IMG/VR virus record: IMGVR_UViG_3300010392_000664 | Coordinates: 1 to 64,000 of that record | Reading direction: 5' to 3' (one strand) | Length of the DNA: 64,000 nucleotides | Source of the DNA: a virus | In this document: positions 35,625-59,992 of the stretch, piece after piece | Numbering within the stretch: the first letter of the stretch is position 1 | Layout of the letters: the number at the start of each line of letters is the position of its first letter | Notes under the pieces: model-generated | What the model was told of the DNA's origin: nothing | Database searches by the model: none | Seen by the model: the letters and a program-made list of their open reading frames with translations, nothing else | Program-made: the position numbers and the translations under genes

Positions 35625-35911
35625 CTTGGGTCAACCACATTGCCATTTTCGGCAATCAGTTTAGAATCCCCCATAAAATGTTTCCAAATTTTCCAATAAT
35701 GTTCAGGATCTCGTACTTCGCTATCCCGAATGAGTCTTTGGCTTCCCCGAACATCCCAGCAATTCAAAAATACCCCACATACCGAAAATGCCTCAACCCG
35801 CACTATTTGCCCATCTTTAATCTCGGTCAACTCTAAATAAAGTGACGGAGTCTCCTCGACATCATCCTCTTTAAGCCAATCCTGAATTTTTCTTTTAATC
35901 CACTTCAGCAT
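35615..35911 (-). CDS. hypothetical protein
   Basis: ORF in operon context. Confidence 0.55.
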   Translation of the reverse strand: MLKWIKRKIQDWLKEDDVEETPSLYLELTEIKDGQIVRVEAFSVCGVFLNCWDVRGSQRLIRDSEVRDPEHYWKIWKHFMGDSKLIAENGNVVDPSRK

Positions 35912-36500
35912 TTTTCACCACAAAAATTTTCCGTTTTAATTTTTTTGTTTTTGGTGACAAAACCGCTTCTATGGCACCATGCCGTTTAAATAACTCGTCA
36001 TACTCCTCATAGGTGGCCGCATAACAATCTGCTTTATTCCACCTGCGGCCCAAACGATTGTGGTACTTATGCCACTCAACGTAAAGTCTGCCGTCTGGTT
36101 TTTTCAATTCTTTCAACCACGCCTGAACAGCAGCATCCGGATCTCTGGCATGATCCAATGAGTTAGTGTACACCAAATCAAATCGACCAACCCAACTCGA
36201 CGGCACCTCAGTAAAATCAATGCAAACTATCCTTTCTCCATCACACAGATCTTCGAAAATTTCAGTGCCTGTCCATAAAGATTCAGAAGGACTTTTACTT
36301 TCGAACAAATCTAATTCTTCTCCACGACGAACCCCATGACACAAACCGTGCATCACTGGAGAGCCATGATATTCTAAGATAGAATCTATCACAGACTCCT
36401 CAGATGAAAATGATGAATTAGGTCTTTTAACCTTTATTTGTGTAGTGTTCCTCTGAGCTTTAATATAGTCGTCGTAGGAATCAAATTTAATTTGTTTCAT
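35895..36500 (-). CDS. class I SAM methyltransferase-like protein
   Basis: LCHGVR.G.E, GTEI, FDLVYTNSLDHA..P, LKKPDG. Confidence 0.7.
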   Translation of the reverse strand: MKQIKFDSYDDYIKAQRNTTQIKVKRPNSSFSSEESVIDSILEYHGSPVMHGLCHGVRRGEELDLFESKSPSESLWTGTEIFEDLCDGERIVCIDFTEVPSSWVGRFDLVYTNSLDHARDPDAAVQAWLKELKKPDGRLYVEWHKYHNRLGRRWNKADCYAATYEEYDELFKRHGAIEAVLSPKTKKLKRKIFVVKNAEVD

Positions 36501-37252
36501 TTTGTCTTTGCTCCATGATCAACAGTCCCGCCGTCTCGTCCTGCACGAGAATGCCGAATACGGTAAACGTCGAGTATCGCTGCGGCTTTTGATGGGCCTA
36601 CTTGTTTCCTGAACGGCACATCTCCTTTGCACGACCGAAAGCCTTGCGAGGGATCAACCCCCTTTGTCCATTTGGTGCCTTTTAGGTAGCCGTTCTTTCG
36701 GCACCAATCACCTTTGACGATCTGGATGCCCCCTATTGCTCGTTTTTCTCTTCGAAGAACGAATTTTGTCAGGTCAATAGGTTTACTGGGATCATTTATA
36801 AGTTCATCCCCATACTCATGTTTTTCATGAATATTCACATATTGAGGAAACACCATGTTTTCTTCTGCTCCCAGGCATTCATAATATGCATCTTTTAATG
36901 AATCTCTGAAGAAGCAATAATCAACATCTGTGAACCATACAACATCAGCACTTGTTAAACAAGCTGCCCGATTTCTTCCTATTGCTCGCCTGAATAGAGC
37001 TTCCTTTTCAAGATGACAAGGATTAATTCTCAAGGGTCCAGAAGTAACGTCTCGATTTTCACGTGGCAAAACAAAATCTTTTAATACATCAACCGTTGCC
37101 ATGTCTTGACGATTAAAGTACACAGATAACGTGACTTCTATGCCATCTTTATGCACTTCAGCTAAACTGGCAAGTTGATGTCGAAGGAGATGATGGTAAA
37201 TCGGAACCTCATCCCCGGAATAACAATGTGTGACGATTTCTATTGTTTTCAT
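36497..37252 (-). CDS. GT-A fold glycosyltransferase
   Basis: GRNRAA, VVWFTDVD DxD motif, GGIQIV. Confidence 0.7.
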   Translation of the reverse strand: MKTIEIVTHCYSGDEVPIYHHLLRHQLASLAEVHKDGIEVTLSVYFNRQDMATVDVLKDFVLPRENRDVTSGPLRINPCHLEKEALFRRAIGRNRAACLTSADVVWFTDVDYCFFRDSLKDAYYECLGAEENMVFPQYVNIHEKHEYGDELINDPSKPIDLTKFVLRREKRAIGGIQIVKGDWCRKNGYLKGTKWTKGVDPSQGFRSCKGDVPFRKQVGPSKAAAILDVYRIRHSRAGRDGGTVDHGAKTK

Positions 37253-37812
37253 TTTACCACGTATCCCCATAACCTATTATCACGAACGTTAATATTCTCT
37301 TCACCTAAAGAAGAAACCACAGCCCTTTTCACACCTCTATAACCACCCCCGTAGTCATGGCCACACAACAAACCTCCTTGGCGAACTTTAGGCAACCATA
37401 ATTCAATATCCTTTTTAACCTCTTTGAATGTATGACATGCATCAATGAAAACGAAATCAAATGTTCCATCAAGATATCGTTTACAGACAAATTCACTTGT
37501 TTCTTTCCAAATAGCAGGAGACACTCCAGGATTAGCTGAATTAATATTTTTTATGGCAGTGTCATAAATGGAATCCCATTGTTTTTGTGACAACTTACCG
37601 GTTCTTTTCATGAAGAAATATTCATCACCTTCTTCCCATTCTCTCCAAGGGTCAACAAAAACCATTGCTATATCTGGAAATGTTGTCAGGATTTTTTTAG
37701 ATGCCAACCCCTTGAATACTCCGATCTCGGCTCCTCTATCTGGACTTGGTCCGAGAAATTCTTCGATCATAAGGACTAAGTCCTCTGACATCGGTCTATC
37801 CCACTTCACCAT
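37249..37812 (-). CDS. class I SAM O-methyltransferase (Methyltransf_24-like)
   Basis: GAEIGVFKG, VDPW, FVFIDACH, GGLLCGHDY. Confidence 0.85.
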   Translation of the reverse strand: MVKWDRPMSEDLVLMIEEFLGPSPDRGAEIGVFKGLASKKILTTFPDIAMVFVDPWREWEEGDEYFFMKRTGKLSQKQWDSIYDTAIKNINSANPGVSPAIWKETSEFVCKRYLDGTFDFVFIDACHTFKEVKKDIELWLPKVRQGGLLCGHDYGGGYRGVKRAVVSSLGEENINVRDNRLWGYVVK

Positions 37813-38548
37813 TTTCTACCATCCTTTTGAATTCATCAAAATCTTCTTGAGTGTTGATTGATAAAGGAGCTTTTTTATATGTTCTGGTTGCCCCTATTTT
37901 ATAACCATATTCAAGCCATGCTATCTGTTCCAAAGATTTAGATACTGACAGCAAAGTATGACTCAACACATTACAAAGACGCAAAAGAGCATCCTTTTGA
38001 AATATATAAACACCAATATGCTCTGAACCAGATGATTCATCACGTGAAAACCAAATGCACCTTGACTCAGGGAAACAGCCCCCATGATCGGTTAGTGTTG
38101 CTTTTACAGCATTTCTGTTATTGACTCTGCCTGTGTCAATAATTCCCACTAATGTGCTTATAACAAACTTCCTATTGTTCCTTGAATACAATAATTCAAT
38201 ATCTTTTGAATCGACAAGAGGTTCATCACATTGAAGATTTATTACATTATTAATGCTGTTAAAAAAGAACTCATCTTCAATCCTAAGAAGTTCTAAAGCT
38301 CGTGCACATCTATGTGTTCCAGTAGGAATATCCAATTCCGTTTTTATGCAATGCAATTCATTTTTTTCACAATACTCATGGATTTCTTTATCCCCACTCA
38401 CAACAAAAACTTGACGAGGTTTTGCACATCTAGCCTTATCATAAGTCCATTTCAACAAAGGACTTCCACCCACTTCTAAAAGAGGCTTACCTGGCAAACG
38501 AGATGAAGCCATGCTCGCCGGTATCATGATAATTGTGTCATTTTGCAT
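37796..38548 (-). CDS. kdsB: KdsB-like CMP-ulosonate cytidylyltransferase
   Basis: IPASMASSRLPGKPL, TGTHR, NLQCDEP, HIGVY, SLEQ..WLE.G, INTQED. Confidence 0.85.
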   Translation of the reverse strand: MQNDTIIMIPASMASSRLPGKPLLEVGGSPLLKWTYDKARCAKPRQVFVVSGDKEIHEYCEKNELHCIKTELDIPTGTHRCARALELLRIEDEFFFNSINNVINLQCDEPLVDSKDIELLYSRNNRKFVISTLVGIIDTGRVNNRNAVKATLTDHGGCFPESRCIWFSRDESSGSEHIGVYIFQKDALLRLCNVLSHTLLSVSKSLEQIAWLEYGYKIGATRTYKKAPLSINTQEDFDEFKRMVENGEVG

Positions 38549-38557
38549 GTTGTTTTC

Positions 38558-39109
38558 CTAAAAGTAATCGTAGGTTTCACAGAATTCCAATTCTGCAGAA
38601 ATGACGGCTTCTTTTTGTCGCCTATTTGTGATATGTGGAGAACCTTTTCTGGCATTCTGTGGAGTAATTTTTCGAACTTGGCCATCACATGATACACGAG
38701 AATTCCTGAATGTATCGAAGATTTCAATAGCAGATTCAGGATAATCTTCAAGTCGAATAACAGTATTTGCTTTGTACGAATCAAACATCTCAGTGACTCT
38801 ACCAGGGAACATCCTGAGATAATTGTTAATAAAAGCCTCAACCGAAGGTGACTTTCGGGCAATCCAACAAAACAGATCGACCCCTACAACGCCCACGGTG
38901 CCGCCACGGAGCGATAGGTAGTAGGAAACTAGCCAATCATACGGATGGCGGATTGTAGTCACCACGAACCCTTTGTGGCCATCAGGTGGTGGGTCATGCA
39001 AGTTCGTCTTCTTCTTATGCCCCAAACCTGCCTCGTAAGCTGCCTTGATAAACCACGTAGTTCCGGTTTTAGGGGCAGCAGCATACTGAAAATCAGTATA
39101 GGATATCAT
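38558..39109 (-). CDS. sulfotransferase
   Basis: 5'-PSB APKTGTTW; 3'-PB IRHPYDWLVSYY; IRLED. Confidence 0.78.
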   Translation of the reverse strand: MISYTDFQYAAAPKTGTTWFIKAAYEAGLGHKKKTNLHDPPPDGHKGFVVTTIRHPYDWLVSYYLSLRGGTVGVVGVDLFCWIARKSPSVEAFINNYLRMFPGRVTEMFDSYKANTVIRLEDYPESAIEIFDTFRNSRVSCDGQVRKITPQNARKGSPHITNRRQKEAVISAELEFCETYDYF

Positions 39110-39794
39110 TTCCAACTTTCTCATAACAGTCACAGAACCGATGTTGCCATTGTAACTCAACCGCCGGTTCATGTTTTTCTAAAAACATCTCCAAACCATC
39201 AACAACGTGATGTTTCTTTCTCCCTCGATTCCGGACGTCATCAAAGACCATCCATCCGCCGACTTTGAGAAGTTCAAATGACAACAGGGCATCTTCAAGC
39301 ACTGCTGTATCTTCATGATCCCCGTCAATGACAATCAGATCAATTGAATTTTTTGTGAACGGCACATCTTTTACAGCAGCACCTTTTCTGACAAGTTGAG
39401 TAAGGGTATCACTGCTATAACCCCTGACAATTTCAAGCTGATCTCTCCAAGGGGCTAAATTATGAATAGCTCGTGAATGCACTCCATCCATATGATCCTG
39501 ATCTAGTTTTCTCGTTGCCGCCCAGGGATCTACCGCAAAAACTCGACTGTCGGGATGTTCCAAGAAGTTTTGCAGGCACCAAATCAAATCCATGCCTTCA
39601 AAGACACCAATTTGGATCATCTTGATTGGTTCATCCGATGAAAACTTCTTCGGCAGGAAAGTACTCCACGTCACTTGATTTCGTTGCCGAAACCATCGTT
39701 TCGTAAATTTGAAATCGTGAACATCCATATCAATAGGAATGCTTTGTTCATCATCTCGTTTTGCGAAGGCTTGCTTTTTAGAAATTCTAGGCAT
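39093..39794 (-). CDS. class I SAM O-methyltransferase (Methyltransf_24-like)
   Basis: QIGVFEG, AVDPW, IVIDGDH, LKVGG.MVFDD. Confidence 0.85.
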   Translation of the reverse strand: MPRISKKQAFAKRDDEQSIPIDMDVHDFKFTKRWFRQRNQVTWSTFLPKKFSSDEPIKMIQIGVFEGMDLIWCLQNFLEHPDSRVFAVDPWAATRKLDQDHMDGVHSRAIHNLAPWRDQLEIVRGYSSDTLTQLVRKGAAVKDVPFTKNSIDLIVIDGDHEDTAVLEDALLSFELLKVGGWMVFDDVRNRGRKKHHVVDGLEMFLEKHEPAVELQWQHRFCDCYEKVGNDILY

Positions 39795-40746
39795 TGACTT
39801 CCTCCTGATACAAGGGGCACTTTTTGGTATGTGTAGTAATCAAACCATCACAATAAAAACACGTATCATCAGACAGATTTTTTACCCTATCCATGTACCT
39901 GTTGAGATACTTATAATCAATTTGAGGCAACCAATCATTAATTTTGCCGACGTTGTTCTCCAGCACTTCCTTAAAAATCGGCTCCCATAGCCATACACCT
40001 TTCGGTGTTTTATTCCATCGAAGATTTGAATCACCATGAAAATGCCATACTTTTACATCATCATCATTCAAATAAGGCGGTTGGAATTTTGGTGAACAAT
40101 TAAACGCCCCGCCCAAGTGCACGTGCATATCATTAGGTGAAAAAATAGATGGTAGAAGATGAAGAACAGTTTCATCCGCAATGAAAATATCCTGAACTTT
40201 ATAAGTCAAGGAAAACCATTTTTCCAACACCGGAGAGTTGGGACAAGCAGAAAAAATCCCGCCGTTAAGTGATGGGAACTTATTGGCGGGATTCAAAACC
40301 CGGCGAACATGAGACTGATCAATCCCATCTCTTCCTTCGAGGCGAGAGATTCGTTTATTGACAATTCTGCCAACAGCTACCCAGTCATTGAATTGAGTAG
40401 CAGAAAAACTAATGCCGTTGTTCAGTACATCGAATAGCTGTTCGATGTCGCCCTGCACCACGGTGTCGGCGTCCAGGTATAAAACACGATCGGCCTCAAC
40501 TTCCTGCATTAACCGAATCTTATCCATGAATTGACGATTACGCCTATTGTAATTCGGCTTTTCTCTTTCATGAGCAGTGATTCTTAATTGCCTGTGCGAA
40601 GCTATTTCCTGAACAAGAGGGTAACTTTCCGGCCACGCATAAACTTCAACAGGACCATCCCATACTTTTCTAAGGGAATGGATGCTGGCGACAAGGTAAG
40701 GGAGGTGGCCTTCACCGCTCATCAGATACACTACTTTATGATTCAT
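39787..40746 (-). CDS. GT8-like glycosyltransferase with C-terminal Cys/His motif
   Basis: VLYLDADT, NGGIF, DETVL, WHFHG; CFYC...H...C tail. Confidence 0.8.
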   Translation of the reverse strand: MNHKVVYLMSGEGHLPYLVASIHSLRKVWDGPVEVYAWPESYPLVQEIASHRQLRITAHEREKPNYNRRNRQFMDKIRLMQEVEADRVLYLDADTVVQGDIEQLFDVLNNGISFSATQFNDWVAVGRIVNKRISRLEGRDGIDQSHVRRVLNPANKFPSLNGGIFSACPNSPVLEKWFSLTYKVQDIFIADETVLHLLPSIFSPNDMHVHLGGAFNCSPKFQPPYLNDDDVKVWHFHGDSNLRWNKTPKGVWLWEPIFKEVLENNVGKINDWLPQIDYKYLNRYMDRVKNLSDDTCFYCDGLITTHTKKCPLYQEEVNA

Positions 40747-41066
40747 TACTCTCCTTCGAAATCTTTGCAGTCACCCAAAATCATTACATTGGCACCTTTT
40801 AAACCAGCATACTTGATTGCCATTCCTAAAAGCATATATTCATCATCGTCATATGCCGCAGCGAAGGCATCTTGATGCAGGGCCACAAATTTAGCTTCTC
40901 CCTCGGCTACAAGACGGACAGATTCCACAAATTCAGGGAGGTACTTATGCACTGTATCCCATAGAATTGCCTTTCTTGTATTAAATTCTTTTTTAGACAC
41001 CTTTGGTCCCGACACCCCAGGTGTCAATTTTTTAGCTTTTGAAAAATCTTGTTGTTTTTGAATCAT
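40746..41066 (-). CDS. hypothetical protein
   Basis: Translationally coupled ORF. Confidence 0.55.
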   Translation of the reverse strand: MIQKQQDFSKAKKLTPGVSGPKVSKKEFNTRKAILWDTVHKYLPEFVESVRLVAEGEAKFVALHQDAFAAAYDDDEYMLLGMAIKYAGLKGANVMILGDCKDFEGE

Positions 41067-41866
41067 TAACCGACCTTTTTATTATGAGCCCATCTTGCAT
41101 ACGAATCTGGACAAGAACAGTAACGGGGATCGAAATGATCCTCGTCTACATAAATGGCATCGAATTGACCGATAACAGAACGATGAGTATGAGTCCAAAC
41201 CTGATAAAATCCCAGTTTAACTAATTCAAGATGAACTTCATATGGTGATGCCCAACCACCCTTGTTGCGAGGTTTCCCGGTCATCTCTACATTGATGACT
41301 TTGACGTGATTCTTGATAAACTTTTTGCCACCACGAATAACCAATGCTTCACTGCCTTCACAGTCAAGCCATAAAAGACATTCCTCATTTTCAAATGACA
41401 TCATATGGTGACTAAAAAAATCATCTAAAGTCGTAGTAAGTACCGACACCGGACGAGTTTTATTTTGATCCCCGTCATTTTTCTTTTTGTAGAATGAAGA
41501 CCCATCTTTCCAACTACGGCTCACATAAAGAATCTCTGAACCAATCTGATCGGATAAAGCCTTATCAGTTAAGTAACCGGGGAACTTATCCTTAATGGAT
41601 TTACAAATCTCCGGCGAAGGTTCGAATCCGTACAACTCAAAACCTTCGAAGTTTTCTCGCATGACTTCCGTTTCATGATGCCGCATACCGACACCGCCCA
41701 TTACAATCAAATCAGGATTAAATTCAAGCAGTTTGCAGTACTCCACTACTGCGTTTCCTGATCGACGATGAACCTTACTTCGATGTGGTTTTTTAATTAA
41801 ATCCTTCAAGAGACTTCTCCACTTCCTTACGAACTGAACTTGTTGAAGAACAATGTTTCCAGCCAA
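41066..41866 (-). CDS. FkbM-family methyltransferase (start uncertain)
   Basis: GFEPS, ALSD..G, TTTLD, LWLDCEGSE..VI.G. Confidence 0.82.
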   Translation of the reverse strand: MAGNIVLQQVQFVRKWRSLLKDLIKKPHRSKVHRRSGNAVVEYCKLLEFNPDLIVMGGVGMRHHETEVMRENFEGFELYGFEPSPEICKSIKDKFPGYLTDKALSDQIGSEILYVSRSWKDGSSFYKKKNDGDQNKTRPVSVLTTTLDDFFSHHMMSFENEECLLWLDCEGSEALVIRGGKKFIKNHVKVINVEMTGKPRNKGGWASPYEVHLELVKLGFYQVWTHTHRSVIGQFDAIYVDEDHFDPRYCSCPDSYARWAHNKKVG

Positions 41867-42605
41867 GATTTTTCATGTTGGTGCAAATCACCGAATGCCC
41901 CATCCGCTTTGCCATATACCAATGATACCCATCTTGCGACCGAACCGGCAGCATTCCTTTGTCGCATGTAGCTATGGCATGAGCTGCACATACCTTAGTG
42001 AATTCAGTATTAAAAAACGCACACCATGAAATGATTCTTTTATGCCGCAACCGACTCCACCCATCCTTCGGTTTTAAATTCAAAGGAGGACTCACTTCAT
42101 CATCAAAAACGGAATGTTCTTCAGCCCATCTATCCAATTGAATCATTTGATCCGCTGGTTTAGTAAATCCCCAGGGATGTGAAATGATAGCTGGGTTACC
42201 TTCAAACCATTCCTGATCCACCCAACCCCCATCATGTCTTGTGGCTACTGTATCAAGATCTAATTTAAGCCAATATCGGGTATTCACATACCATGCTGGG
42301 ACATAAACAAAGCCCGCAAGCATTTTATACCTTTGCGGACAAGTCCACTTATTCGAAGGATCACCTGGGTACACAACACCCACTTCTGACCAAGGGACAA
42401 GTGATATTTTTGTAGTATAAAAGCTCAAATGAGAATCAAGCACATCCCAAACTTCATGATGGGTCACCTGTTCTCTGTCATAAAAAATTACAAATTTATG
42501 CTTAAAAAGATCTGGTTTATGTTTCTTCCAAGTAGGCAGAACGAGATTAAGCTGAGCTAAGTGTTTTCTGTCAACACCCAAAACCACGGTATAGTCATCA
42601 TACAT
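41793..42605 (-). CDS. GT-A fold glycosyltransferase-like protein
   Basis: YWLKLDLDT DxD motif, QDG, terminal H; cluster context. Confidence 0.6.
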   Translation of the reverse strand: MYDDYTVVLGVDRKHLAQLNLVLPTWKKHKPDLFKHKFVIFYDREQVTHHEVWDVLDSHLSFYTTKISLVPWSEVGVVYPGDPSNKWTCPQRYKMLAGFVYVPAWYVNTRYWLKLDLDTVATRHDGGWVDQEWFEGNPAIISHPWGFTKPADQMIQLDRWAEEHSVFDDEVSPPLNLKPKDGWSRLRHKRIISWCAFFNTEFTKVCAAHAIATCDKGMLPVRSQDGYHWYMAKRMGHSVICTNMKNLGWKHCSSTSSVRKEVEKSLEGFN

Positions 42606-43780
42606 TAAAAGAAACCCCCCTTTGCGGCTTGGGTTGTTTTATCAGGTCTTTTTGATCGTACCACCCCACGTTGCAGACGAGTCTTTATAATCTCGCAATA
42701 CTCTTCCTGCAATTCGACACCAACTGCCCTACGCCCAAGTAATCTAGCAGCAACCAAAGTAGTTCCAGATCCGCTAAATGGATCCAAAACAACACCATCT
42801 TTTGGGGTTACAAGTTTAATGAGATACCTCATTAATTCCAATGGCTTGACAGTAGGGTGATTGTTTGCAGCACCCTTTTCCAGGGCATCGGCTTTTGGGC
42901 AATAAAAGAACCGAGCAACCGATCCATTTGCATCCGTCGGAAAGATATCAATAACTTCATCACTTCCGTCGTGCATAAGATTCGCTGGGAATCTCCCAGG
43001 AGTCAAATCAGCAAGCACAACATCACAAGCATTAAATACTTTTTTAGATGTGCGAGGGCCGACCCATTGCTTTCTGGCGTCAGTCAACTTGTCCTGATCC
43101 TCTGCAGGAATTCTGCATTCCCGAAGATTCAACCCGCCAGTTCCATGCTTCAAAACATTTTGAGCTACGGTTCCTTCAAATGACTTGCGTGCCATTGTAA
43201 TCGGTTCCATGCAAGGTTTGATGGCAGTTCCCCAGCCATCCCATATTTTTGCCTCTTCAGTAGCGGGTGCCGATACCGGGACAAGGCCAGTTTCGGGGTC
43301 AGGTGCGTTTTCTGGCCTTGCGGTAAAACTACCTACCGTCACCCGTCCGTTCGCGTCCTTGCGACCAGCGTGCAACCCTGCCGCCTTATGGCCGATCACT
43401 TCGCGAGTAGCCCCAGCTTCAATATCAATTCTTTTGCCGATGTCGGTAGATTTCGGGAAACCTTCCCCATAAATCCATGCCAGCATGTCCCTGATCTGAA
43501 ACCCGGCATCTTCGATGTTGATGGCCATTCTGTGCTGGGTGCGAGTTCCGGCAAATGCTAATACATGGCCTCCAGGTTTCAGTACACGGAGACATTCCTC
43601 CCATACTGCTTTTACTGGAACATCGTAGTCCCATTTTTTTGCCATAAAATTGATTCCGTAAGGAGGATCTGTGACGACAGAATGGATACTGTCGTCAGGA
43701 ATCTCTTTCATCATTTCTAAGCAATCCCCATTCAAAAGGGTGATGCCAAGATTCTCATCCTCATAATACGGTTCTTTCAT
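42605..43780 (-). CDS. N4-C/N6-A DNA methyltransferase (beta class)
   Basis: TDPPY, GFPKS, GRFPAN, HPTVKP, DPFSGSGTT. Confidence 0.92.
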   Translation of the reverse strand: MKEPYYEDENLGITLLNGDCLEMMKEIPDDSIHSVVTDPPYGINFMAKKWDYDVPVKAVWEECLRVLKPGGHVLAFAGTRTQHRMAINIEDAGFQIRDMLAWIYGEGFPKSTDIGKRIDIEAGATREVIGHKAAGLHAGRKDANGRVTVGSFTARPENAPDPETGLVPVSAPATEEAKIWDGWGTAIKPCMEPITMARKSFEGTVAQNVLKHGTGGLNLRECRIPAEDQDKLTDARKQWVGPRTSKKVFNACDVVLADLTPGRFPANLMHDGSDEVIDIFPTDANGSVARFFYCPKADALEKGAANNHPTVKPLELMRYLIKLVTPKDGVVLDPFSGSGTTLVAARLLGRRAVGVELQEEYCEIIKTRLQRGVVRSKRPDKTTQAAKGGFF

Positions 43781-44847
43781 TTTTTCCTTCTTCTGTTCTT
43801 TTTCTTTTTCTCTTTGAAATACCACCCATCACAATCAAACGGCTCTTTCGGAAAGAACTGCAGGGCATCCTCAACTGCTAAATCAAATGGAGCATAATCA
43901 AATGCAGCTAAATGTGAATTCTGATTACAGTTAAATATTTCTAATCCGAACTTAGAAAATATTCCTTTTTGCTGCATTTCGCATAACCATTGATTGACGA
44001 TCTTATATTGATTATTGTTTGACCGAACTGCTCCTTCATCCCGGACTTCTCGGAAGGCATAATTGTCATGAAGATCCCGTCGTGGATCCATATACATATC
44101 CACTCCGACAAGATAAATTCTTCTTGCTCCCAGATAGTATAGTACTCTGATGGCAAGTAATAACGTACAAACCGTCTTCATTCCTCCAGTTTTTTTCACA
44201 CCGGCATCCAGGTTTCCCCAAGCAGCATGATCATCTAAGAAAAATGATTCATCAGGAATCAACCACGATCGTCTACCGAATCCCCAGACATTTGGGCAAT
44301 GGCAAGCAGACACCTTGTTTCCATTGATGAATAATTGCTGAAAACTACCATCTTCTTTTTTCCGCAGCCCACCCCTGTTCACCCGCATTTTCGGTGTAGG
44401 AACAAACTTCATAACTCTAGGATCTTGCCAAATCCCATTATGAAATTTACTGGGAGGATCCGCACAGATGAAAGCGGAAGCCCGATAATACGCCGCCATA
44501 TTATTTACGGCTAAAGAAAAGATGCCCCGTTGCTCGATTTTAGAAAGATCAAGCTGACGTGCGGAAGGACCACCTGCTACGAGAAAAGCAGTTCCATTAG
44601 CAAGCAAATTCCGCAAAGCATGAGTTTTTACTCCACACCAATCCTGAATAACAAGATCATCCTGAAATCGTTTATCAAAACATTTTGCATCTAATGTGAG
44701 TCTTTCACAACAGTCTTCGCATGAAGCATAAGGAAAATTCAATCCTGTTTTTGTGCAGACCTCATGTATAGCACATTTATAGGTTTGTCTTCCATCATCG
44801 GTTTTCTTATCGGGCAAAGCCTCTTTTAGATACACGCACTTGGGCAT
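43777..44847 (-). CDS. Maf/DUF115-like putative CMP-sugar transferase with Cys-rich N-terminus
   Basis: AFLVAGGPSA, LAVNN, CADP, LYYLGARRIYLVGVDM, IFNCN. Confidence 0.65.
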   Translation of the reverse strand: MPKCVYLKEALPDKKTDDGRQTYKCAIHEVCTKTGLNFPYASCEDCCERLTLDAKCFDKRFQDDLVIQDWCGVKTHALRNLLANGTAFLVAGGPSARQLDLSKIEQRGIFSLAVNNMAAYYRASAFICADPPSKFHNGIWQDPRVMKFVPTPKMRVNRGGLRKKEDGSFQQLFINGNKVSACHCPNVWGFGRRSWLIPDESFFLDDHAAWGNLDAGVKKTGGMKTVCTLLLAIRVLYYLGARRIYLVGVDMYMDPRRDLHDNYAFREVRDEGAVRSNNNQYKIVNQWLCEMQQKGIFSKFGLEIFNCNQNSHLAAFDYAPFDLAVEDALQFFPKEPFDCDGWYFKEKKKKNRRRKK

Positions 44848-51725: not shown

Positions 51726-51787
51726 AAGATCATGATAAATTATCTCATCCGTTTCTTGGGCATCCCCGTCACTTCTTGCGACGGACC

Positions 51788-53091: not shown

Positions 53092-53121
53092 GCTGAATTC
53101 CTTATCAGATCAAATTTAAGT

Positions 53122-53847
53122 TTACGGTGAGGAGGAAGAGCTACTCGAAGCTGACGAAGTTGACGATGCCGACGAACTCGACAGACTACTACTTGATGAC
53201 GATACCGATGACACTGAGCTGCTGCTTGACGAGCTACTCGACACCGAGCTACTGGAAGAGCTGCTTGACGAACTGGAACTTGCGTCAGCATCATCTCTAC
53301 CTATCAACAACACAGTGTAGGTAACTGCTGCTGAATTTGCCGTTACCTTAACACGATGACTTGATGCGTCCGTTACTGCAAATGCTGCTTCAGCAGGCTG
53401 TGCTTTTGCTAACCACCCTTGGCCTCGTAGCCCACCTCCTAATGCCGCAGTATGGGAACCGATCGGACTCCAACCATTTGTGGCGTCAGGTTCGACTTCC
53501 AGGATACCAGCAGCATCCACCGCATTTTCATTCACAAACCCAACAAACACGATTTCTTCATTTAAGTTTGCCTGCCCATTTATATCGTTTCCAGCACCCG
53601 CCCCAGTGTCAATAGATCCCGTATCGTAGACATCAATTACCCGCGAAGATCCACTTGATAGGGTTTCTCTGAATTCCCATGCTCTGTTTGCTTCATTTGC
53701 ATTAACACCAGACGACAAAGTTAATGAAAGCACAAGCTGCTGCACACCAGACGAATTTCTGCTGGTGTTGGATGTCATTGTATTGACAACAGTAGCAGTG
53801 GCCGAAATTGATACTTTCGCTGCTGCAAGGGATCGTGTTCCCATCAC
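53122..53847 (-). CDS. putative virion protein with ~52-aa C-terminal poly-serine tail
   Basis: Beta-rich domain between tail terminator and tube; Ser tract at 53125-53280 in mixed TCN/AGY codons. Confidence 0.75.
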   Translation of the reverse strand: MMGTRSLAAAKVSISATATVVNTMTSNTSRNSSGVQQLVLSLTLSSGVNANEANRAWEFRETLSSGSSRVIDVYDTGSIDTGAGAGNDINGQANLNEEIVFVGFVNENAVDAAGILEVEPDATNGWSPIGSHTAALGGGLRGQGWLAKAQPAEAAFAVTDASSHRVKVTANSAAVTYTVLLIGRDDADASSSSSSSSSSSSVSSSSSSSSSVSSVSSSSSSLSSSSASSTSSASSSSSSSP

Positions 53848-53854
53848 TTAACCT

Positions 53855-54361
53855 TTATAATAATTTAACCGGAACGTCGAGTAAGAAGAGATAAAAGATG
53901 TCCCATCTATACTCTTTATCACCCGTTTTTATTCCAACATCATTCTGGTACTGCACATTCAAAACATTGCCATAAGTCAGTTCGATCGGCAGGGGATCCG
54001 CTTCTGGATGCCCGCCGAATTTTTGCATAACAAAACCGGCGAGGCGAGCAGCAGTCTCTTTCGCTGTTTCATTATTTGTACTGATTTCTTTTGCATGTAT
54101 TCTGAAAATCCAAGGGACTAGTCTATGCTCATGTTTTTCGTCTGCAGAATGACCAGAATCCCTTGAATCTGTATTTCCAGCTTCTTGCTCGTATACGCAA
54201 TAAGGAAATGGCTGTTTTGCCATCCCGTCTTGATCGTTTAGGGAAGTGAATTGAGTGCGTAATGACTCCTCCCAATTCTTCTTAAATTCCCATGATATTC
54301 CTGAATCTTCCCATACAGTGGCAATGGCTTTATGTAAGTCCGCTGATCCTACAAAAGTCAT
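53855..54361 (-). CDS. tail terminator / completion protein
   Basis: PFPYCVY motif; position after the gp10-like gene. Confidence 0.65.
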   Translation of the reverse strand: MTFVGSADLHKAIATVWEDSGISWEFKKNWEESLRTQFTSLNDQDGMAKQPFPYCVYEQEAGNTDSRDSGHSADEKHEHRLVPWIFRIHAKEISTNNETAKETAARLAGFVMQKFGGHPEADPLPIELTYGNVLNVQYQNDVGIKTGDKEYRWDIFYLFLLDVPVKLL

Positions 54362-54819
54362 CGTATTGGCCCTGACAATAACTTAACCAGTCGTTGTCTA
54401 TTTTCATTCAAAGTTCTACGCAAAAACGACCGATTCATCTGAAGTTCTAGGGTCACACCATAATCAACAGGTGTGCCAATCACCCCATCGTATACTCCAG
54501 GACTAGGGGAAAAGGTCGTTTGAAAAATTGACTTCATCAGGTTAGTTGTGTCTGCTTTCGGAAATTCTCCAGGTTTCGATCGGTTCGAAACCCTGACCAC
54601 TCCATTGACCAGAGATTTCGTAACCGGACGAGAGATATTTTTGACCACCTCATTTCTAACGAATTCTGAAGCTAAAGAAACTCGTTGTCTTACGGTCAAC
54701 TCTATCTTACTAGAAACTTCCTCAATGAACCACTTTGTTTCGCTTGCTCTGTCTCCAGCAGTCGCAGCCCGGCGAAACCGAGCTTTTTCAATGCGATTAA
54801 TTCCTGCTTGAGTTGCCAT
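54358..54819 (-). CDS. HK97 gp10-like tail completion protein
   Basis: SKPGEFP..DT.NL..SI, YG..LE, RSFLR.TL. Confidence 0.75.
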   Translation of the reverse strand: MATQAGINRIEKARFRRAATAGDRASETKWFIEEVSSKIELTVRQRVSLASEFVRNEVVKNISRPVTKSLVNGVVRVSNRSKPGEFPKADTTNLMKSIFQTTFSPSPGVYDGVIGTPVDYGVTLELQMNRSFLRRTLNENRQRLVKLLSGPIR

Positions 54820-55421
54820 TAACCACCTGATCGTGAAAGATTTTCAACCCATTCGTCCCATTGATCTTCATAAACGGGTTGGGTGTTACCAATTCGACTG
54901 CCAGGATTCAGCAAAAACTTACCCGGCAATTCTTCAATTTCTTCGATTGTTGGTTGCTTGCCCCGAACCAACTTGGCATCTCCTGATTCCAAGAGCCACA
55001 ACATTTCCCGGCAAAGGGTCTTCATTCGATGTGGGTCAAGTATTTCAGTTCTCGGAGGCACACCTTCGATCTTATCCCCGACCGAAAATGCACTTGTTTC
55101 CTTCATGTACCGATAAATCCGTTTGCACATCTGTTCATCATTATTCAACGGATCCTTGATCATGATCGTTCTGTTTTCCGGGTCCACGTGCAATTCCATT
55201 CCCGGAATCCTTTGCAGAGTCGCTAACCCCCGCGATCTATCAACGGGAACCATCATTTCCCCGGATTTCACATCCTTGACTGGTCGATGCCCATCAATGG
55301 CAGAACGTAATCTCAATCCGGGAACTGATTGAATCAACTGATTACCGTTATTCTGGTTATCAATCTCAATCCCGAACTTTACATAAGTTCTGCTCTCTTG
55401 CTTCTCCGCTGTTGCCGCCAT
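54819..55421 (-). CDS. hypothetical protein in the head-tail region
   Basis: ORF directly after the capsid gene. Confidence 0.65.
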   Translation of the reverse strand: MAATAEKQESRTYVKFGIEIDNQNNGNQLIQSVPGLRLRSAIDGHRPVKDVKSGEMMVPVDRSRGLATLQRIPGMELHVDPENRTIMIKDPLNNDEQMCKRIYRYMKETSAFSVGDKIEGVPPRTEILDPHRMKTLCREMLWLLESGDAKLVRGKQPTIEEIEELPGKFLLNPGSRIGNTQPVYEDQWDEWVENLSRSGG

Positions 55422-55452
55422 TAACTCTACCTTTCTTAAATGCTATAGTGAA

Positions 55453-55491
55453 CCCTGTCTGCTGGCAAAACAACAAATCCAGCAGACAGGG
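55453..55491 (-). promoter_or_regulatory. 13-bp perfect hairpin after the capsid gene (processing/stabilising site or weak terminator)
   Basis: CCCTGTCTGCTGG...CCAGCAGACAGGG with no U-tail. Confidence 0.55.
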
Positions 55492-55530
55492 ACTCAAGAT
55501 AGCAGATTCCTTCCGCTATACAAGTTCAAC

Positions 55531-57195
55531 TTACGCAGGTGCAGTAGTGGTCAAAGCCGCCGTTGCACCTCGTTCGAGCTGACCGCCATATCGTGCCATA
55601 GCAACGACAAGCATCTCGTTTCTGCGGAGGAGGGTGTCACCCTCGGTACTCGTTCGAATGGCTAGGCCACGACGACGGTACATCCGGTAACGGGCCAAGA
55701 TTGCATAGAAAATTTGGGTATTCGCCAAACTTTCGTTAATCTTGTATGGCCGTTGCATCCATTGGTAATCATCGTAATTCATACCACCGAGGCGACGGGC
55801 ATCAGAAGCTCCAACCGGGATGGCCTTTGCTCTCTGATAAGAGGTTTCCGTTCCGCAAAAGACAGCAGTCGATTTGACATTTGCCTTATGCTCAGGTTTC
55901 GCAACACCGAACCGCAAGGATTCGTAGTTACCCAGGCTAGTTGTACCGCCCCAGGCAACCGTCGTGATACCCGACTTGTTGACAACACCTTCGGGTTGGG
56001 TCGTACCGTTACCGACCGCCACAACGTCGTCCAGGTCTTCGAGAAGCCGTTCACCGTATTGTGAGGTGATGAGTCCACCGAAGTCCAGGGGTGTGTCTGA
56101 CATGAAATCCAAACCGATTCGGACAGCACCTTCCCAACGATAGATGGTAGTGTCAAATGCCGAAACATAGTTTGTGGTGTCAAACAATGAAATCGACGTG
56201 TCATCAACACCGCCCCAAGAAGCAGTGATGTTGCTGACTTCAACACCTTCAATCCGACGACCACGATCCAACGGAATTGTGTTGACAAGCGGGAACAACT
56301 CACCATAAAGCAGGGGAGTTTGAATCACCATGTCATCAAAAACAATAGGAGCAGCTTCAAGACCACCAGATGCAGCATCGTCGATAAGAGCTTTAATGCC
56401 CGTTCCGCTGCGGCCACGATAACCCTTTGAAGTCATCGATTTGTAGTCTTCCGACGAATCCCATTGTTCTTCAAGGGCAAGGTAAGTCAGCAGATTCTTT
56501 TCATGATCTGACAACATTTCCCAAGCCCGGACTGCGGTTCCCGCAATATTCGGTGCCGCTGCAGCAATCTGCAACTTAGCAAATGCACCGGCGAGTGCCT
56601 TATCCCGGTCAGAAGGACTGTACAAGGTACGCCCAAGATCGGTGACAGGCATTCCTGCCAATTGATTACGATGACCACTCTTTGTGGCTTCCGGGTACTT
56701 CAACACAGATTTCTCTGTTGAGTACCGCTCAGCCGCCGATTTCACTCGGATAGTGGAATCATCGGAATCCTTCTCAGTGGAATTTCCTGCATTTGCCATG
56801 ACAGCTTTTTCCAACTCACTCGGTTTCTTTTCTTTTTCGCCATCCGGAGTTTCCGACTTCTCGGAGGTTTCCTTGGCACTCTTTTCTTCATCACCCGCAG
56901 GTTCTTCAACGGCATGCTTTTCAACAACCGTTTCGGCGGTTTTTTGACCGTCGATGATGGTTTGTTTCAAGTCACCGACAACGGACACAAGATCCGTCAT
57001 TGCCTTGGTGAACTCATTCGGAGCTTCATCAGAAGCGTCCTTTGTGAGATCATTCAAAATATCCAAAGTAAGATCACTTTCTTCGGATACCAGGGCTTCG
57101 GCTACCGCCTTGCGGAATTCTTCGTCAGTCGAGTTTGCCTTAACTTGGCAGTTATCGACCAGCCACTTCTTCAGCTTCGCAGTCAATTTAAACAT
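55531..57195 (-). CDS. major capsid protein (HK97 fold) with long N-terminal scaffold-like region
   Basis: SGGLEAAP, GNGTTQPEGV, ARYGG; follows the protease. Confidence 0.88.
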   Translation of the reverse strand: MFKLTAKLKKWLVDNCQVKANSTDEEFRKAVAEALVSEESDLTLDILNDLTKDASDEAPNEFTKAMTDLVSVVGDLKQTIIDGQKTAETVVEKHAVEEPAGDEEKSAKETSEKSETPDGEKEKKPSELEKAVMANAGNSTEKDSDDSTIRVKSAAERYSTEKSVLKYPEATKSGHRNQLAGMPVTDLGRTLYSPSDRDKALAGAFAKLQIAAAAPNIAGTAVRAWEMLSDHEKNLLTYLALEEQWDSSEDYKSMTSKGYRGRSGTGIKALIDDAASGGLEAAPIVFDDMVIQTPLLYGELFPLVNTIPLDRGRRIEGVEVSNITASWGGVDDTSISLFDTTNYVSAFDTTIYRWEGAVRIGLDFMSDTPLDFGGLITSQYGERLLEDLDDVVAVGNGTTQPEGVVNKSGITTVAWGGTTSLGNYESLRFGVAKPEHKANVKSTAVFCGTETSYQRAKAIPVGASDARRLGGMNYDDYQWMQRPYKINESLANTQIFYAILARYRMYRRRGLAIRTSTEGDTLLRRNEMLVVAMARYGGQLERGATAALTTTAPA

Positions 57196-57273
57196 TTTTA
57201 CTCCTAATCATCTGCGACCGCATCAAATACTGCCATGCATACGAGACCGACCCGTTGCCATGACTTCGAACTA

Positions 57274-58740
57274 TCAGTTCATCAACTCTTTGAACTTTTT
57301 AGTTCGTTCAGTCCTTTCATCAATTTCTTGGAATGCCTTCAGGGAATCCAGTAATTTGCTCCGCTGCCCCCTGTCAGCATAAGCCAGAATTGTTTTCATT
57401 GCTGCTTCAACGCCATTACTTTCGGCTTGCTTGCGAGCTTCAGCAAGTTTCTTAAGATGCTGGAACAGGCTTTTATCTTCTATCTTAGTTGTCGTGGAAA
57501 CATTAACCTCAGTTGGTGTCCCGGTTAGTTTGGGACTGCCGTCTTTATACTTCCAACCAACTCGAATGAAGTTTTCTTTATAACCATCATCATATTCTTC
57601 ATACATGATGATTACGTTTTTCTGAAATGTACCAACAACATGGCAATAACAATAATCATCCATATCGATGTCATTTTCATCCAGATAACCCTTAACCTGA
57701 GAATTCAAATCATCTCGAATGGCCTCGTAACTACCATCAATTGCCGACGAATAAAAACCTTTCTCGGAAATGACCAGATCTTTTTCTTCGGTCACTTCTT
57801 GGTTTTTGGTGTCATTGATTTTGGTTTCGACCGCATTGGTTTCTTTTGGTGAGCTACCTCCGCAGGAACATCCTTTACTTCCGGTTTCAGTTTTTGATTC
57901 GGATTTTGCTTTTTCGTCATCTTTGTTTTCCTTGGCAAGCACTAAAGTTTCCGGCACGACGAAGGTCTTGTCACGACGGTCCCGGATGCCTTGGCCCACA
58001 CTTTTCATGATTCCAGATGTAAGTTTACCGCCTTCAACCAACGAAAGCAGAACCTCTTCAACCACCGCATCAGCATTCGCCGGTACGGAAACAACGGATT
58101 CCTCAATGATGGCATACTTTTTGATGTCAAATCCACCAGCCATCCCATACTCGTCTTCATCTTTTAGCTGGCTGAATTCTAAAGCACTGAATCCGTGAGA
58201 AAACCTACCCATGTCATTGTCAACCATGACGGCAGCGTCTTTTGCCACGTCATTGATATCCACAATGGCCGAGTAAAGCGACAAACTTTTAGAAGTATGG
58301 CTTGCAACCCCCAACATTTTGCCAATCGGCAAAGTATGGATATGTTGCCACAACAGCAACATTTTAGGATCAAGAACAGCACCATCTGTTCTTAGAATAT
58401 CACCATCTCGATCCTTTGTTGACGTTGTCAAAACATGTTTGATCACCATCAATGTATTTTTAGGAAGTTCAATGGAAAGACCATCTTGTGAAATGATATC
58501 CTTTCCCTTATCTTCCACAACCATTTCATCATTGCTGTAGGTCAATGTTTCCGATGCCTTTTTGAGAACATCAGAAAAACTGACATTTGATTTAGATGCA
58601 AATTTATAACATGCATCTAAACCAACGCACGACTCAACAGTCTTGACGTAACGATCTGCCGTAAGGATGCCGCGATTGAACTCAGTGTTCTTAGCACCGC
58701 GTTCTTTCAGCAACTTAAGCAGTAGCTCATTTGGATCCAT
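57274..58740 (-). CDS. prohead maturation protease (HK97 type) with C-terminal extension
   Basis: DRDGDIL, LLWQH...PIG, FSHGF, EESVVSVPAN. Confidence 0.88.
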   Translation of the reverse strand: MDPNELLLKLLKERGAKNTEFNRGILTADRYVKTVESCVGLDACYKFASKSNVSFSDVLKKASETLTYSNDEMVVEDKGKDIISQDGLSIELPKNTLMVIKHVLTTSTKDRDGDILRTDGAVLDPKMLLLWQHIHTLPIGKMLGVASHTSKSLSLYSAIVDINDVAKDAAVMVDNDMGRFSHGFSALEFSQLKDEDEYGMAGGFDIKKYAIIEESVVSVPANADAVVEEVLLSLVEGGKLTSGIMKSVGQGIRDRRDKTFVVPETLVLAKENKDDEKAKSESKTETGSKGCSCGGSSPKETNAVETKINDTKNQEVTEEKDLVISEKGFYSSAIDGSYEAIRDDLNSQVKGYLDENDIDMDDYCYCHVVGTFQKNVIIMYEEYDDGYKENFIRVGWKYKDGSPKLTGTPTEVNVSTTTKIEDKSLFQHLKKLAEARKQAESNGVEAAMKTILAYADRGQRSKLLDSLKAFQEIDERTERTKKFKELMN

Positions 58741-58741
58741 A

Positions 58742-59053
58742 TCAGATAGTCCGTCCAAAGTACTGAATATTTAGTTTAGTGTCACCGGCACTCTGACAGA
58801 ATTTAAATCCCTGCAACCATGCCCTGGTAACTTCAACATAACTACCACCAGCTTGAAGGATCATTCCACGAGAACCTCCTGGTGTCGATCCATCCAAAAC
58901 GTAGTTAATGTCACCCTCATCCTGAGCTTGGATTTGAGCAACAGTCGTTCCGTCAGGGATAGTAAGATCACTGACTGACTTCACCGCTGGGGTGTTAAGA
59001 TCAATTTGTTCATAGCCGAGGCAATTCACTATCGACTTCCTCTCGCTACACAT
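58742..59053 (-). CDS. hypothetical small beta protein, possibly virion-associated
   Basis: Head-module context; INY.LDGSTP...G..L. Confidence 0.55.
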   Translation of the reverse strand: MCSERKSIVNCLGYEQIDLNTPAVKSVSDLTIPDGTTVAQIQAQDEGDINYVLDGSTPGGSRGMILQAGGSYVEVTRAWLQGFKFCQSAGDTKLNIQYFGRTI

Positions 59054-59385
59054 GTGGCATCAATGGCAACCAGTTGGCGGATAGCTTTTCGATGACCACT
59101 TTCGATTCTTTTCATCCATGCCAAAATGGTTCCGACGGAAACTTGATCTGAGCCATCCGGCACATCAGATTGAGCTTTGTTCATGTTACGGCTAACACCT
59201 AACCGTTTCAAAGCCCGAAAGGATCCCTCTCGGATCGAACGAGCACGGTCAACTGGGCCGGTGTTGATCCATCGGATGACATTCGCAAACTTTTGCTTAT
59301 CAAGAGCAACCACCTGTTGTGCTTCTTTTTCAGTACTGGAATTATCCAGAACAGGAGTTACTTGTGGGTTTTTTCGAACTGCCAT
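59029..59385 (-). CDS. hypothetical protein
   Basis: GAGG SD; head-module context. Confidence 0.55.
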   Translation of the reverse strand: MAVRKNPQVTPVLDNSSTEKEAQQVVALDKQKFANVIRWINTGPVDRARSIREGSFRALKRLGVSRNMNKAQSDVPDGSDQVSVGTILAWMKRIESGHRKAIRQLVAIDATCVARGSR

Positions 59386-59434
59386 GTTTTCCTCATTGTT
59401 ATAAGTAATTCTAACCTGCAGTCATGCCGCTAGA

Positions 59435-59992
59435 TTACGATTGACTGCTAGAGTTACTAGATGCCGAACTGCTCGATTGACTGCTGCTCGATAACGAGGA
59501 GGATGTCGAGCTAAAGGAACTCGGTGAGCTACTCGATGGTGAGCTACTTGACGATTGAGAACTGCTCGATGTCGATTGAGAACTGCTAGAGCTTGAAGAA
59601 CTGACCGAGAAGGAACTTGTGGAGCTAACCGAACTCTGGGAACTGCTCGATTGACTACTGCTCGATTGAGAAGAGCTGGAAGAAAGATCTTCCATCGAAA
59701 GAACAGAAAGCCGATCCCCTGACGAAGGTCCAGGAAATTGCAATTCACCGGTGTGGAAATTCAAAACATCCGTAGTTGATGTTTCCCCGGAATTTAGCAC
59801 ATCAACCAATTTTGCTTGCCAGATAGTGTTACTCGGAAGAGCAACAGTGACATTTTCAACTACCCCTGCATCAGCACTATGCTGTGCTGCTGGAGCAGAA
59901 TCATCACCTGCTCGATGCATTCTTGTGATAGTCAAGGTGCGGGTAGCCAAATTGGAAGGTGCCGGTCCCAGACCAAAAGTAACATTTTTCAT
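59435..59992 (-). CDS. putative virion protein: small beta-sandwich-like domain with ~82-aa poly-serine tail
   Basis: GGAG SD; Ser tract at 59438-59683 in mixed codons. Confidence 0.75.
   Translation of the reverse strand: MKNVTFGLGPAPSNLATRTLTITRMHRAGDDSAPAAQHSADAGVVENVTVALPSNTIWQAKLVDVLNSGETSTTDVLNFHTGELQFPGPSSGDRLSVLSMEDLSSSSSQSSSSQSSSSQSSVSSTSSFSVSSSSSSSSQSTSSSSQSSSSSPSSSSPSSFSSTSSSLSSSSQSSSSASSNSSSQS

Follow-up and report, generated by a model that had tools for sequence, protein, structure and literature searches.

Why should a tailed phage carry long runs of serine in proteins of its late operon, and what is served by the sugar enzymes that it encodes directly behind its tail genes? 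The question arises from a 64,000-nucleotide stretch of viral DNA (the window), bases 1-64000 of IMG/VR virus record IMGVR_UViG_3300010392_000664, which is 93,004 bp long and has a CheckV completeness estimate of 98%. The poly-Ser proteins, together with a conserved cluster for activating, transferring and methylating sugars behind the tail genes, indicate that this phage probably sugar-coats its own particle. With a probability of about 0.6, we read the locus as a late-operon system for glycosylation of the phage's particle proteins by the phage itself, with O-glycans placed on poly-Ser acceptor tags. An earlier note on this DNA had proposed dedicated Ser scaffolds and a Maf-type cluster that decorates them with methylated and sulfated ulosonate glycans. 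Comparison with other genomes now supports the scaffolds and the cluster; this support does not extend to the chemical detail.

Six proteins of the genome carry poly-Ser tracts (Table 1). Four of them lie in the window, where they had been noticed before, and two giant ones outside it are added here. Serine fills 64 of 88 tract residues in a small head-module protein and 44 of 57 in a protein encoded between the neck and tail genes; the distal tail-region protein (15/25) and the product of the last large tail-module gene (18/28) have shorter tracts. The background in the genome's other open reading frames (ORFs) is 6.5% Ser. The tracts mix all six Ser codons, and Tandem Repeats Finder reported no DNA repeat in the long ones except one weak 9-bp row. 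Mixed codons and the lack of a DNA repeat argue that the tracts are kept at the protein level, as the earlier note had judged from the codons of the long ones, and are not products of slippage. The giant pair is encoded upstream of the portal gene (4018-6612 and 7078-9246 of locus L144, minus strand), and its neighbours encode a 768-aa beta-helix protein (CEMIP beta-helix, 3.2e-9) and a head-tail-adaptor-like protein. Both giants belong to the same phenomenon as the window tracts; the N-terminal domain of the shorter one had zero matches in the two libraries searched.

The two proteins with long tracts in the window consist of a folded domain followed by a poly-Ser tail. In the head-module protein, the N-domain resembles FN3 and immunoglobulin (Ig) domains (TM score 0.6-0.68 by query, Atlas model) and meets the tail at a conserved SMED(L/E)SSSS junction. 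Its homologues, drawn from 5.8 billion proteins and 52-86% identical, have a poly-Ser tail of 17-106 residues in 34 of 34 cases, two of which look frameshifted. For the second protein, an AlphaFold2 model has a predicted local distance difference test score (pLDDT) of 83-97 over most of the N-domain and below 50 over the tail, which is disordered. This domain matches, at Z ~7, subunits of Ena pili (endospore appendages), plant satellite-virus coats, the KHP40 cement protein and the HFTV1 turret. Since such Z values are those of a common fold, the protein is called only a jelly-roll protein of the structural module. It was also considered as a tail tube, and the fold searches listed jelly-roll, decoration and pilus proteins and no tube protein; its place in the particle is still unsettled. 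Its homologues have the tail (27-118 residues) in 25 of 30 cases and lack it in five (P0206, P0209, P0211, P0213 and P0214). From gene position and fold (Ig/FN3-like, jelly-roll), we infer that the two tailed proteins sit on capsid and tail. Relative G005 encodes, after its tape-measure gene, a second jelly-roll copy (54122-56788; L060/L061 3065-5731) that is 44% identical to the window's protein and contains a 491-residue Ser tract.

The candidate enzyme for these serines is the Maf-like protein encoded behind the tail genes. Structure prediction, a check that the earlier note had proposed, yielded an AlphaFold2 model with pLDDT 93.8. Its best structural match is Maf of Magnetospirillum magneticum (5mu5; Z 13.2 over 198 aa, 3.7 A), followed by SteA (Z 10.0), MptE (9.9), CstII (9.6) and animal sialyltransferases (9-10). 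The family has 1001 representatives at E 1e-3 or better, and 13 of 52 aligned members match PF01973, with a best E of 1.3e-6. The family profile also finds CstII (E 6e-5), with GGPS and GxDF...YAF aligned to CMP-binding stretches; the CstII counterparts are GNGPS and GIDFY156...Y162AF, and the phage protein has Y252 and an invariant Y263 there. The column of CstII His188, which we take to be the catalytic base and whose position is counted from the alignment, is not conserved in the family and holds Val in the phage protein. For that reason the protein was not filed as GT42, and its model identifies it as Maf-like.

The same fold raises a different possibility: the Maf-like protein might act on poly-Ser as a phospho- or diphosphotransferase, producing a phosphoserine brush, with the sugar enzymes serving a separate purpose. 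Matches to MptE, a 6-hydroxymethylpterin diphosphokinase, and to thiamine pyrophosphokinase (Z 8.1) would suit such an activity, as would the unconserved His188 column and the many distant Maf/poly-Ser pairs that have no matches to the phage's other cluster proteins nearby. We nevertheless judge phosphotransfer very unlikely. The Maf glycosyltransferase is the best match by ~3 Z units and the shared motifs are those of CMP-sugar transferases. Within the clade, moreover, the Maf-like gene always heads a block of glycosyltransferases, and in two distant loci (L091, L100) a KdsB-like gene lies directly upstream of it, with poly-Ser genes nearby.

Further support for sugar transfer comes from the other cluster enzymes, whose families were searched in Pfam, NCBIfam, PHROG and PDB sequences. 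The earlier note's description of this stretch as a glycan cluster holds for most of its genes: the KdsB-type, GT8 and GT2-like enzymes and the methyltransferases are of kinds that typically build glycans. For the KdsB-type cytidylyltransferase, the 13 best PDB matches are all KdsB or KpsU, down to 1.4e-18, and in NCBIfam PseF is reached only at 0.056; the assignment suggests a sugar like 3-deoxy-D-manno-octulosonic acid (Kdo) in the first or terminal position. Three GT-A glycosyltransferases with DxD motifs had been predicted, and two of them stand. The GT8 enzyme has D92 and D94 invariant in its family alignment, with a weak match of the family profile to glycogenin (0.014); the GT2-like enzyme matches the PHROG 'galactosyl transferase' family (2.9e-4) and has four paralogues in relative G003. 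The third, a conserved protein whose gene in relatives usually follows the Maf-like gene immediately or one place away, was not accepted as a GT-A enzyme: it had no match in the four collections, and hhalign comparisons with the GT8 and GT2-like families were not significant.

The remaining enzymes would modify the glycan. Four S-adenosylmethionine-dependent (SAM) methyltransferases had been claimed, and two Methyltransf_24 proteins and one FkbM protein bear this out; the fourth, a conserved 201-aa protein, has sub-threshold matches only and is, as a weak call, probably a divergent class I methyltransferase. Of the predicted sulfotransferase, two motifs survive, PKTGTTW and RHPYDWLVSYY, which resemble the 5'-phosphosulfate-binding (5'-PSB) and 3'-phosphate-binding (3'-PB) motifs for 3'-phosphoadenosine 5'-phosphosulfate (PAPS). 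The first is degenerate in about half of the family, and neither the protein nor its family has a Pfam, NCBIfam or PDB match, so it is listed at the motif level. None of the cluster enzymes has a membrane segment, and the only membrane-like segment of the block is in the small 114-aa protein before the Maf-like gene. Family searches of the cluster genes found no flippase, polymerase, lipid-carrier transferase or membrane glycosyltransferase, and likewise no GT4 (GtfA/GtfB-type) or SecA2/SecY2 match. Soluble enzymes, the lack of lipid-carrier and export matches in the cluster, the placement in the late operon and the precedent of the mycobacteriophages support what we regard as the most economical reading, namely that the Maf-like enzyme acts on the poly-Ser tracts and in this clade heads a cassette for the glycan on them.

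One cluster gene, missed in the earlier note, encodes an N6/N4 DNA methyltransferase. Its homologues in relatives G001 and G003 lie far from the cluster, and it is found within the cluster in this genome only; it is therefore treated as an insertion, outside the glycan system. Its presence invites the view that the cluster hypermodifies the phage's DNA with sugars and has nothing to do with the poly-Ser proteins. DNA modification by phage glycosyltransferases is indeed known (preprint 10.1101/2023.12.21.572611). The methylase, however, is peculiar to this one copy of the cluster, and no hydroxymethylase, DNA kinase or TET-like dioxygenase match was found among the cluster genes. To our knowledge, KdsB-, FkbM- and Maf-type enzymes are not DNA modifiers either, and we regard sugar modification of DNA as scarcely credible here.

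If the tails are acceptors of the cluster's sugars, the two should travel together, and co-occurrence across relatives was a check suggested in the earlier note. Searching with the capsid protein brought up 16 related IMG/VR loci (52-65% identity), and in all 16 the poly-Ser tail is retained by the orthologues of the two tailed proteins. Four long relatives were examined as whole contigs (G001, G003, G004 and G005; the Maf-like match of G001 is also carried by G002). In G001/G002, G003 and G004/G005 the tail genes are immediately followed by the Maf-like gene, and behind it stand homologues of the K-x-D-x-D protein, FkbM, GT8, Methyltransf_24, the sulfotransferase-like protein and the GT2-like enzyme. 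Not all are present everywhere: blastp found no FkbM match in G005, and G001 and G003 are the relatives with the KdsB-like gene. A search with the Maf-like profile added 41 further clade loci, with a poly-Ser gene in 28 of the 28 that reach at least 9 kb upstream, counting L049, whose poly-Ser gene lay further upstream. ORFs 1-3 kb upstream of the Maf-like gene often have longer Ser tracts in relatives, and each long relative has at least one giant poly-Ser protein. Orthologues keep their tails, and synteny of the cluster holds in every relative whose sequence reaches far enough.

For the lineage of the five tail-less jelly-roll homologues, scans of IMG/VR and Joint Genome Institute metagenomes with these proteins yielded one contig, L226 (= L229), of 12.9 kb, which lacks the head-module poly-Ser gene too and ends before the expected position of the cluster. 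The absence of both poly-Ser features fits joint gain or joint loss and is mute on the enzymes. The tail-less jelly-roll protein of L226 has an internal SDSDSDSD loop, and a 123-aa ORF with a DSDSDYDSDSDD stretch stands where the head-module poly-Ser gene would be (the two ORFs noted are L226 3445-3813 and 9272-9844). Here acidic sequence may take the place of the Ser tails.

The association extends beyond the clade. A distant set comprised 39 IMG/VR loci with Maf-like genes 29-39% identical to that of the phage and without its structural genes; some lie in jumbo-sized contigs of 150-500 kb. A poly-Ser ORF, counted when it had a run of 20 residues or more, shared the Maf strand and lay no more than 10 kb away, accompanied the Maf-like gene in 17 of the 39, and in 10 of these the two are 0-300 nt apart. 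Among control loci around DNA methylase homologues the count was 0/18 (Fisher p 4e-4 against 17/39). A quick tree of Maf-like domains scatters the linked cases over many deep branches. In distant phage L105, a 1070-aa protein (17004-20213) has both a Ser tract of 503 residues and a T4 neck-protein domain (PF11649, 1e-9), a composition that suggests a poly-Ser collar or whisker fibre.

Bacterial genomes repeat the pattern. With one genome per prokaryote species (GTDB), 80 loci were collected (L146-L225), and in 46 of them a Ser tract lies at most 1.5 kb from the Maf-like gene on the same strand. Almost all are metagenome-assembled genomes of Planctomycetota, Verrucomicrobiota and Victivallaceae, the loci being cellular or prophage. 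This hints that phages of this kind may infect bacteria of the Planctomycetes-Verrucomicrobia-Chlamydiae (PVC) group. No capsid homologue was seen in the 80 loci. A two-gene module, present in several copies per genome, recurs at L218 (8001-10054), L152 (8001-9925), L122 (10001-12315) and many Phycisphaerales loci; in it a Maf-like gene is directly followed by a gene for a Ser/Gly-rich protein with an intein-like Hint domain. That protein runs from a short conserved N-terminus, RYFLYIPVWA, through a long Ser/Gly-rich region and the Hint domain to a second Ser/Gly-rich tail.

These neighbourhoods also bear on the simplest alternative, that poly-Ser forms unmodified flexible linkers or entropic bristles, a role suggested for polyserine linkers in carbohydrate-active enzymes of bacteria, and that the cluster does other work, such as remodelling host surface glycans. 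Several tracts do lie between folded domains, as in the distal tail-region protein with its internal tract and in the giants with their terminal domains, and KdsB-, GT8- and FkbM-type enzymes are also typical of lipopolysaccharide and capsule pathways. The two best-conserved tracts, however, are C-terminal tails that link nothing, and the cluster has soluble enzymes, with no family match to the flippase, polymerase, lipid-carrier or membrane-transferase machinery named above. Plain linkers would also leave the recurrent adjacency of Maf-like genes and poly-Ser in distant phages and bacteria unexplained. We therefore consider this alternative unlikely.

Glycosylation of the particle proteins has its own difficulties, and the following points weigh against it. 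Polyserine linkers without demonstrated glycans occur in the genomes of Saccharophagus and Teredinibacter. The Maf-like protein itself has no PF01973 match in Pfam at E 0.01; the unconserved His188 column and a fold class that also holds diphosphokinases have been mentioned above. The KdsB-like assignment stands at the superfamily level and falls below the NCBIfam cut-offs, with 155.7 bits against 193 for the KdsB subfamily and 100.3 against 155.2 for TIGR00466. No KdsB-like homologue was found in the 86-kb relative G005 (blastp, E 1e-4), so a Kdo-like sugar cannot be universal. Being sub-threshold and not found in every relative, the KdsB-type enzyme makes the Kdo-like sugar the weakest step of the proposal. 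Counts from related phages are not independent events, the 18-locus control is small and partly redundant, and 22 of the 39 distant Maf-like loci have no poly-Ser gene within 10 kb. Several of these 22 end right after the Maf-like gene, and their close relatives have a poly-Ser gene just downstream. The tailed proteins are placed in the virion by gene position and fold, and the claim as a whole, for which we retain the probability given at the outset, draws on sequence, structure models and gene context.

The analysis shows the tracts and how they are conserved, the families and folds of the enzymes, the synteny, and the recurrence of Maf-like genes near poly-Ser genes; these can be joined into a proposed pathway. 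Glycosylation would take place in the host cytoplasm, before particle release, and the disordered poly-Ser tracts of six structural-block proteins would be the acceptor tags. The Maf-like transferase would add the first sugar to serine hydroxyls, with a donor that is probably a CMP-activated, Kdo-like ulosonic acid supplied by the phage's KdsB-type enzyme or by the host. Extension could then fall to the GT8 and GT2-like enzymes, possibly joined by the K-x-D-x-D protein, and decoration to three or four O-methyltransferases and perhaps the sulfotransferase-like protein. Proteins of head, tail and fibres would thereby gain a brush of hydrophilic and probably acidic glycans. In this scheme we infer the relation of enzyme to substrate, which sugar is used, how the steps follow one another, where in the virion the proteins sit and what the system does biologically.

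A wider proposal, which we put forward tentatively and rate somewhat short of even, is that poly-Ser tracts and Maf-like transferases form a portable pair of tag and writer. Many unrelated tailed phages, jumbo phages included, and elements of Planctomycetota and Verrucomicrobiota might share this pair, by which any tagged protein would become a mucin-like glycoprotein. In the present clade, the writer would head a cassette for an acidic, methylated, Kdo-containing glycocalyx on heads, tails and fibres.

Several known systems resemble parts of this scheme. The Maf flagellin O-glycosyltransferases (PF01973; 5mu5) share with the phage protein a fold, a cytoplasmic site of action and a presumed Ser/Thr hydroxyl target, and they too have as partner a cytidylyltransferase whose product is an acidic sugar activated with CMP. 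The phage gene differs in lying in a late operon after tail genes, where the window's structural and cluster blocks contain no flagellin-like gene. Its presumed acceptor is a homopolymeric Ser tract and not a folded flagellin surface, and its partner cytidylyltransferase is KdsB-type and not PseF/NeuA-type.

Serine-rich repeat adhesins of Gram-positive bacteria (PsrP, Fap1, GspB) are very long Ser-rich scaffolds for O-glycans. A gene cluster of their own encodes the cytoplasmic glycosylation enzymes, with GT8 and GT2 members that lengthen the glycan. The phage cluster genes, in contrast, have no match to a GtfA/GtfB-type pair or to the accessory Sec system; Maf-like initiation is proposed, and the products would be phage particle proteins. 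The sole sequence link to these systems, to the GT8 entry 5gvv, is no better than chance (E 0.18).

The closest viral precedent comes from mycobacteriophages Che8, Corndog and Myrna, whose own transferases attach sugars to capsid and tail-tube proteins (Freeman et al. 2023, as summarised in PMC12363180 and PMC10568470). Our literature search found no other experimentally shown case of virion glycosylation in tailed phages. In both, phage-encoded glycosyltransferases in or next to the structural operon are the common element; that they modify the phage's own particle proteins is shown for the mycobacteriophages and proposed here. The mycobacteriophages have actinobacterial hosts, whereas the host here is possibly a PVC bacterium. 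The present phage is also set apart by its Maf-like enzyme, by a ~9 kb cluster with a CMP-sugar synthetase and methyltransferases, and by dedicated poly-Ser tails of up to ~690 residues. Giant viruses (chloroviruses, and Mimivirus with its fibrils) likewise encode sugar-nucleotide and transferase genes for glycosylating the particle surface, according to a review (PMC9614988); unlike this phage, they belong to the viruses of eukaryotes, and neither their acceptor proteins nor their enzymes are related to those found here.

Secreted carbohydrate-active enzymes with polyserine linkers are described for Saccharophagus degradans (PMC2386152) and Teredinibacter turnerae (PMC2699552). These linkers of marine gammaproteobacteria share with the phage tracts their length, homopolymeric nature and mixed codons. 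They join catalytic and binding modules, whereas the best-conserved tracts of the phage are free C-terminal tails linked to a transferase gene. No paper was found in the literature on poly-Ser tails of phage particles or on their pairing with Maf-like enzymes.

Table 1. Poly-Ser proteins, cluster enzymes and other features of the locus. Positions are window coordinates unless marked; gene order in the remarks runs 5' to 3' on the minus strand.
Feature	Position	Strand	Evidence or remarks
Head-module protein, 185 aa	59435-59992	-	Ig/FN3-like N-domain of ~100 aa and poly-Ser tail of ~85 aa
Protein encoded between neck and tail genes	53122-53847	-	Jelly-roll N-domain of ~187 aa and poly-Ser tail of ~52 aa
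Distal tail-region protein	47332-48234	-	Internal Ser-rich tract of ~25 aa; homologues in relatives
Last large tail-module gene, 709 aa	45206-47335	-	Short internal Ser tract and C-terminal tract of ~17 aa
Giant poly-Ser protein, 864 aa, 65% Ser	67018-69612 of the genome, outside the window	-	Ser tract of ~685 residues
Giant poly-Ser protein, 722 aa, 41% Ser	70078-72246 of the genome, outside the window	-	Ser tract of ~358 residues
Maf-like (MptE-like/DUF115 superfamily) transferase, candidate initiating O-glycosyltransferase	43777-44847	-	Fold and family profile
N6/N4 DNA methyltransferase	42605-43825	-	PF01555 9.5e-36; between Maf-like gene and next cluster gene
Conserved cluster protein, invariant K-x-D-x-D, candidate glycosyltransferase	41793-42605	-	Conservation in relatives
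FkbM-family SAM methyltransferase	41066-41866	-	PF05050 2.4e-12; TIGR01444 2.4e-12, above cut-off
GT8 glycosyltransferase, D-A-D motif	39787-40746	-	PF01501 27.8 bits against cut-off 24.3, short stretch
Class I O-methyltransferase (Methyltransf_24 / Methyltransf_3)	39093-39794	-	3.5e-17 / 7.3e-6
Sulfotransferase-like protein, motif level	38558-39172	-	PKTGTTW and RHPYDWLVSYY
KdsB-type (CMP-Kdo synthetase-like) cytidylyltransferase	37796-38548	-	PF02348 2e-27; NCBIfam KdsB subfamily 1e-45
Class I methyltransferase (Methyltransf_24)	37249-37812	-	3.1e-15
GT-A fold (GT2-like) glycosyltransferase, D-V-D motif	36497-37270	-	Chondroitin synthase 3 and TarP, E 3e-4 to 7e-4 (family profile)
Conserved 201-aa protein	35895-36500	-	Sub-threshold methyltransferase-domain matches in 7/8 family members (E 0.001-0.15)
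Small protein, 114 aa, membrane-type hydrophobic N-terminus	44807-45151	-	Zn_ribbon_8 E 0.0039 (weak); Kyte-Doolittle 2.27
Portal	62218-63879	-	Followed by a head-morphogenesis-type gene, then small genes including 59435-59992
Protease/scaffold fusion	57274-58758	-	
HK97-type capsid protein	55531-57195	-	PF05065 1.4e-10; followed by neck genes, then 53122-53847
Tape-measure protein	49209-51314	-	After 53122-53847, a highly conserved 141-aa gene and chaperones
Intrinsic terminator closing the late operon	35563-35627	-	Hairpin dG -33.4 kcal/mol, z -4.94, then UUUUU (folding)
Strong promoter-like site	35559-35531	-	TTGACA-17-TACAAT, 11/12 consensus matches; few bases past the terminator

The layout of the late operon frames these features. 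In the block from 33 to 64 kb, every gene-sized ORF taken as a gene is on the minus strand, as are 71 of the 75 ORFs longer than 150 aa genome-wide. Three distal tail genes, two of them with short Ser tracts, lie 3' of the tape-measure gene, and the enzyme cluster follows directly on the same strand, with overlapping genes, as far as 35563. The small membrane-type protein is encoded after the last tail gene and before the Maf-like gene, whose start it overlaps. Between 35563 and 45206 a consensus scan gave no more than weak terminator-like sites; folding verified the terminator at 35563, where the earlier note had placed it. Terminator and near-consensus promoter-like site (35531-35627, minus strand) together make a sharp border between transcription units. 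DNA near-identical to the record is present in three marine-sediment metagenome runs, no RNA data set was among those listed as containing it, and megablast against the phage record collection gave zero matches.

Glycosylation of the tailed-phage particle has so far been demonstrated only in a few mycobacteriophages, whose recognition by antibodies it changes. Should the present reading be true, sugar-coated phages would be common in sediments, wastewater and other habitats. Both the acceptor tag (the poly-Ser tail) and the enzyme (the Maf-like protein) would be simple to recognise, giving a sequence signature by which glycosylated virions could be predicted from metagenomes. The pair would also be a candidate tool for tagging proteins for O-glycosylation. 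Finally, the role of a glycan brush in phage adhesion, stability and host recognition would become testable in particle-rich environments.

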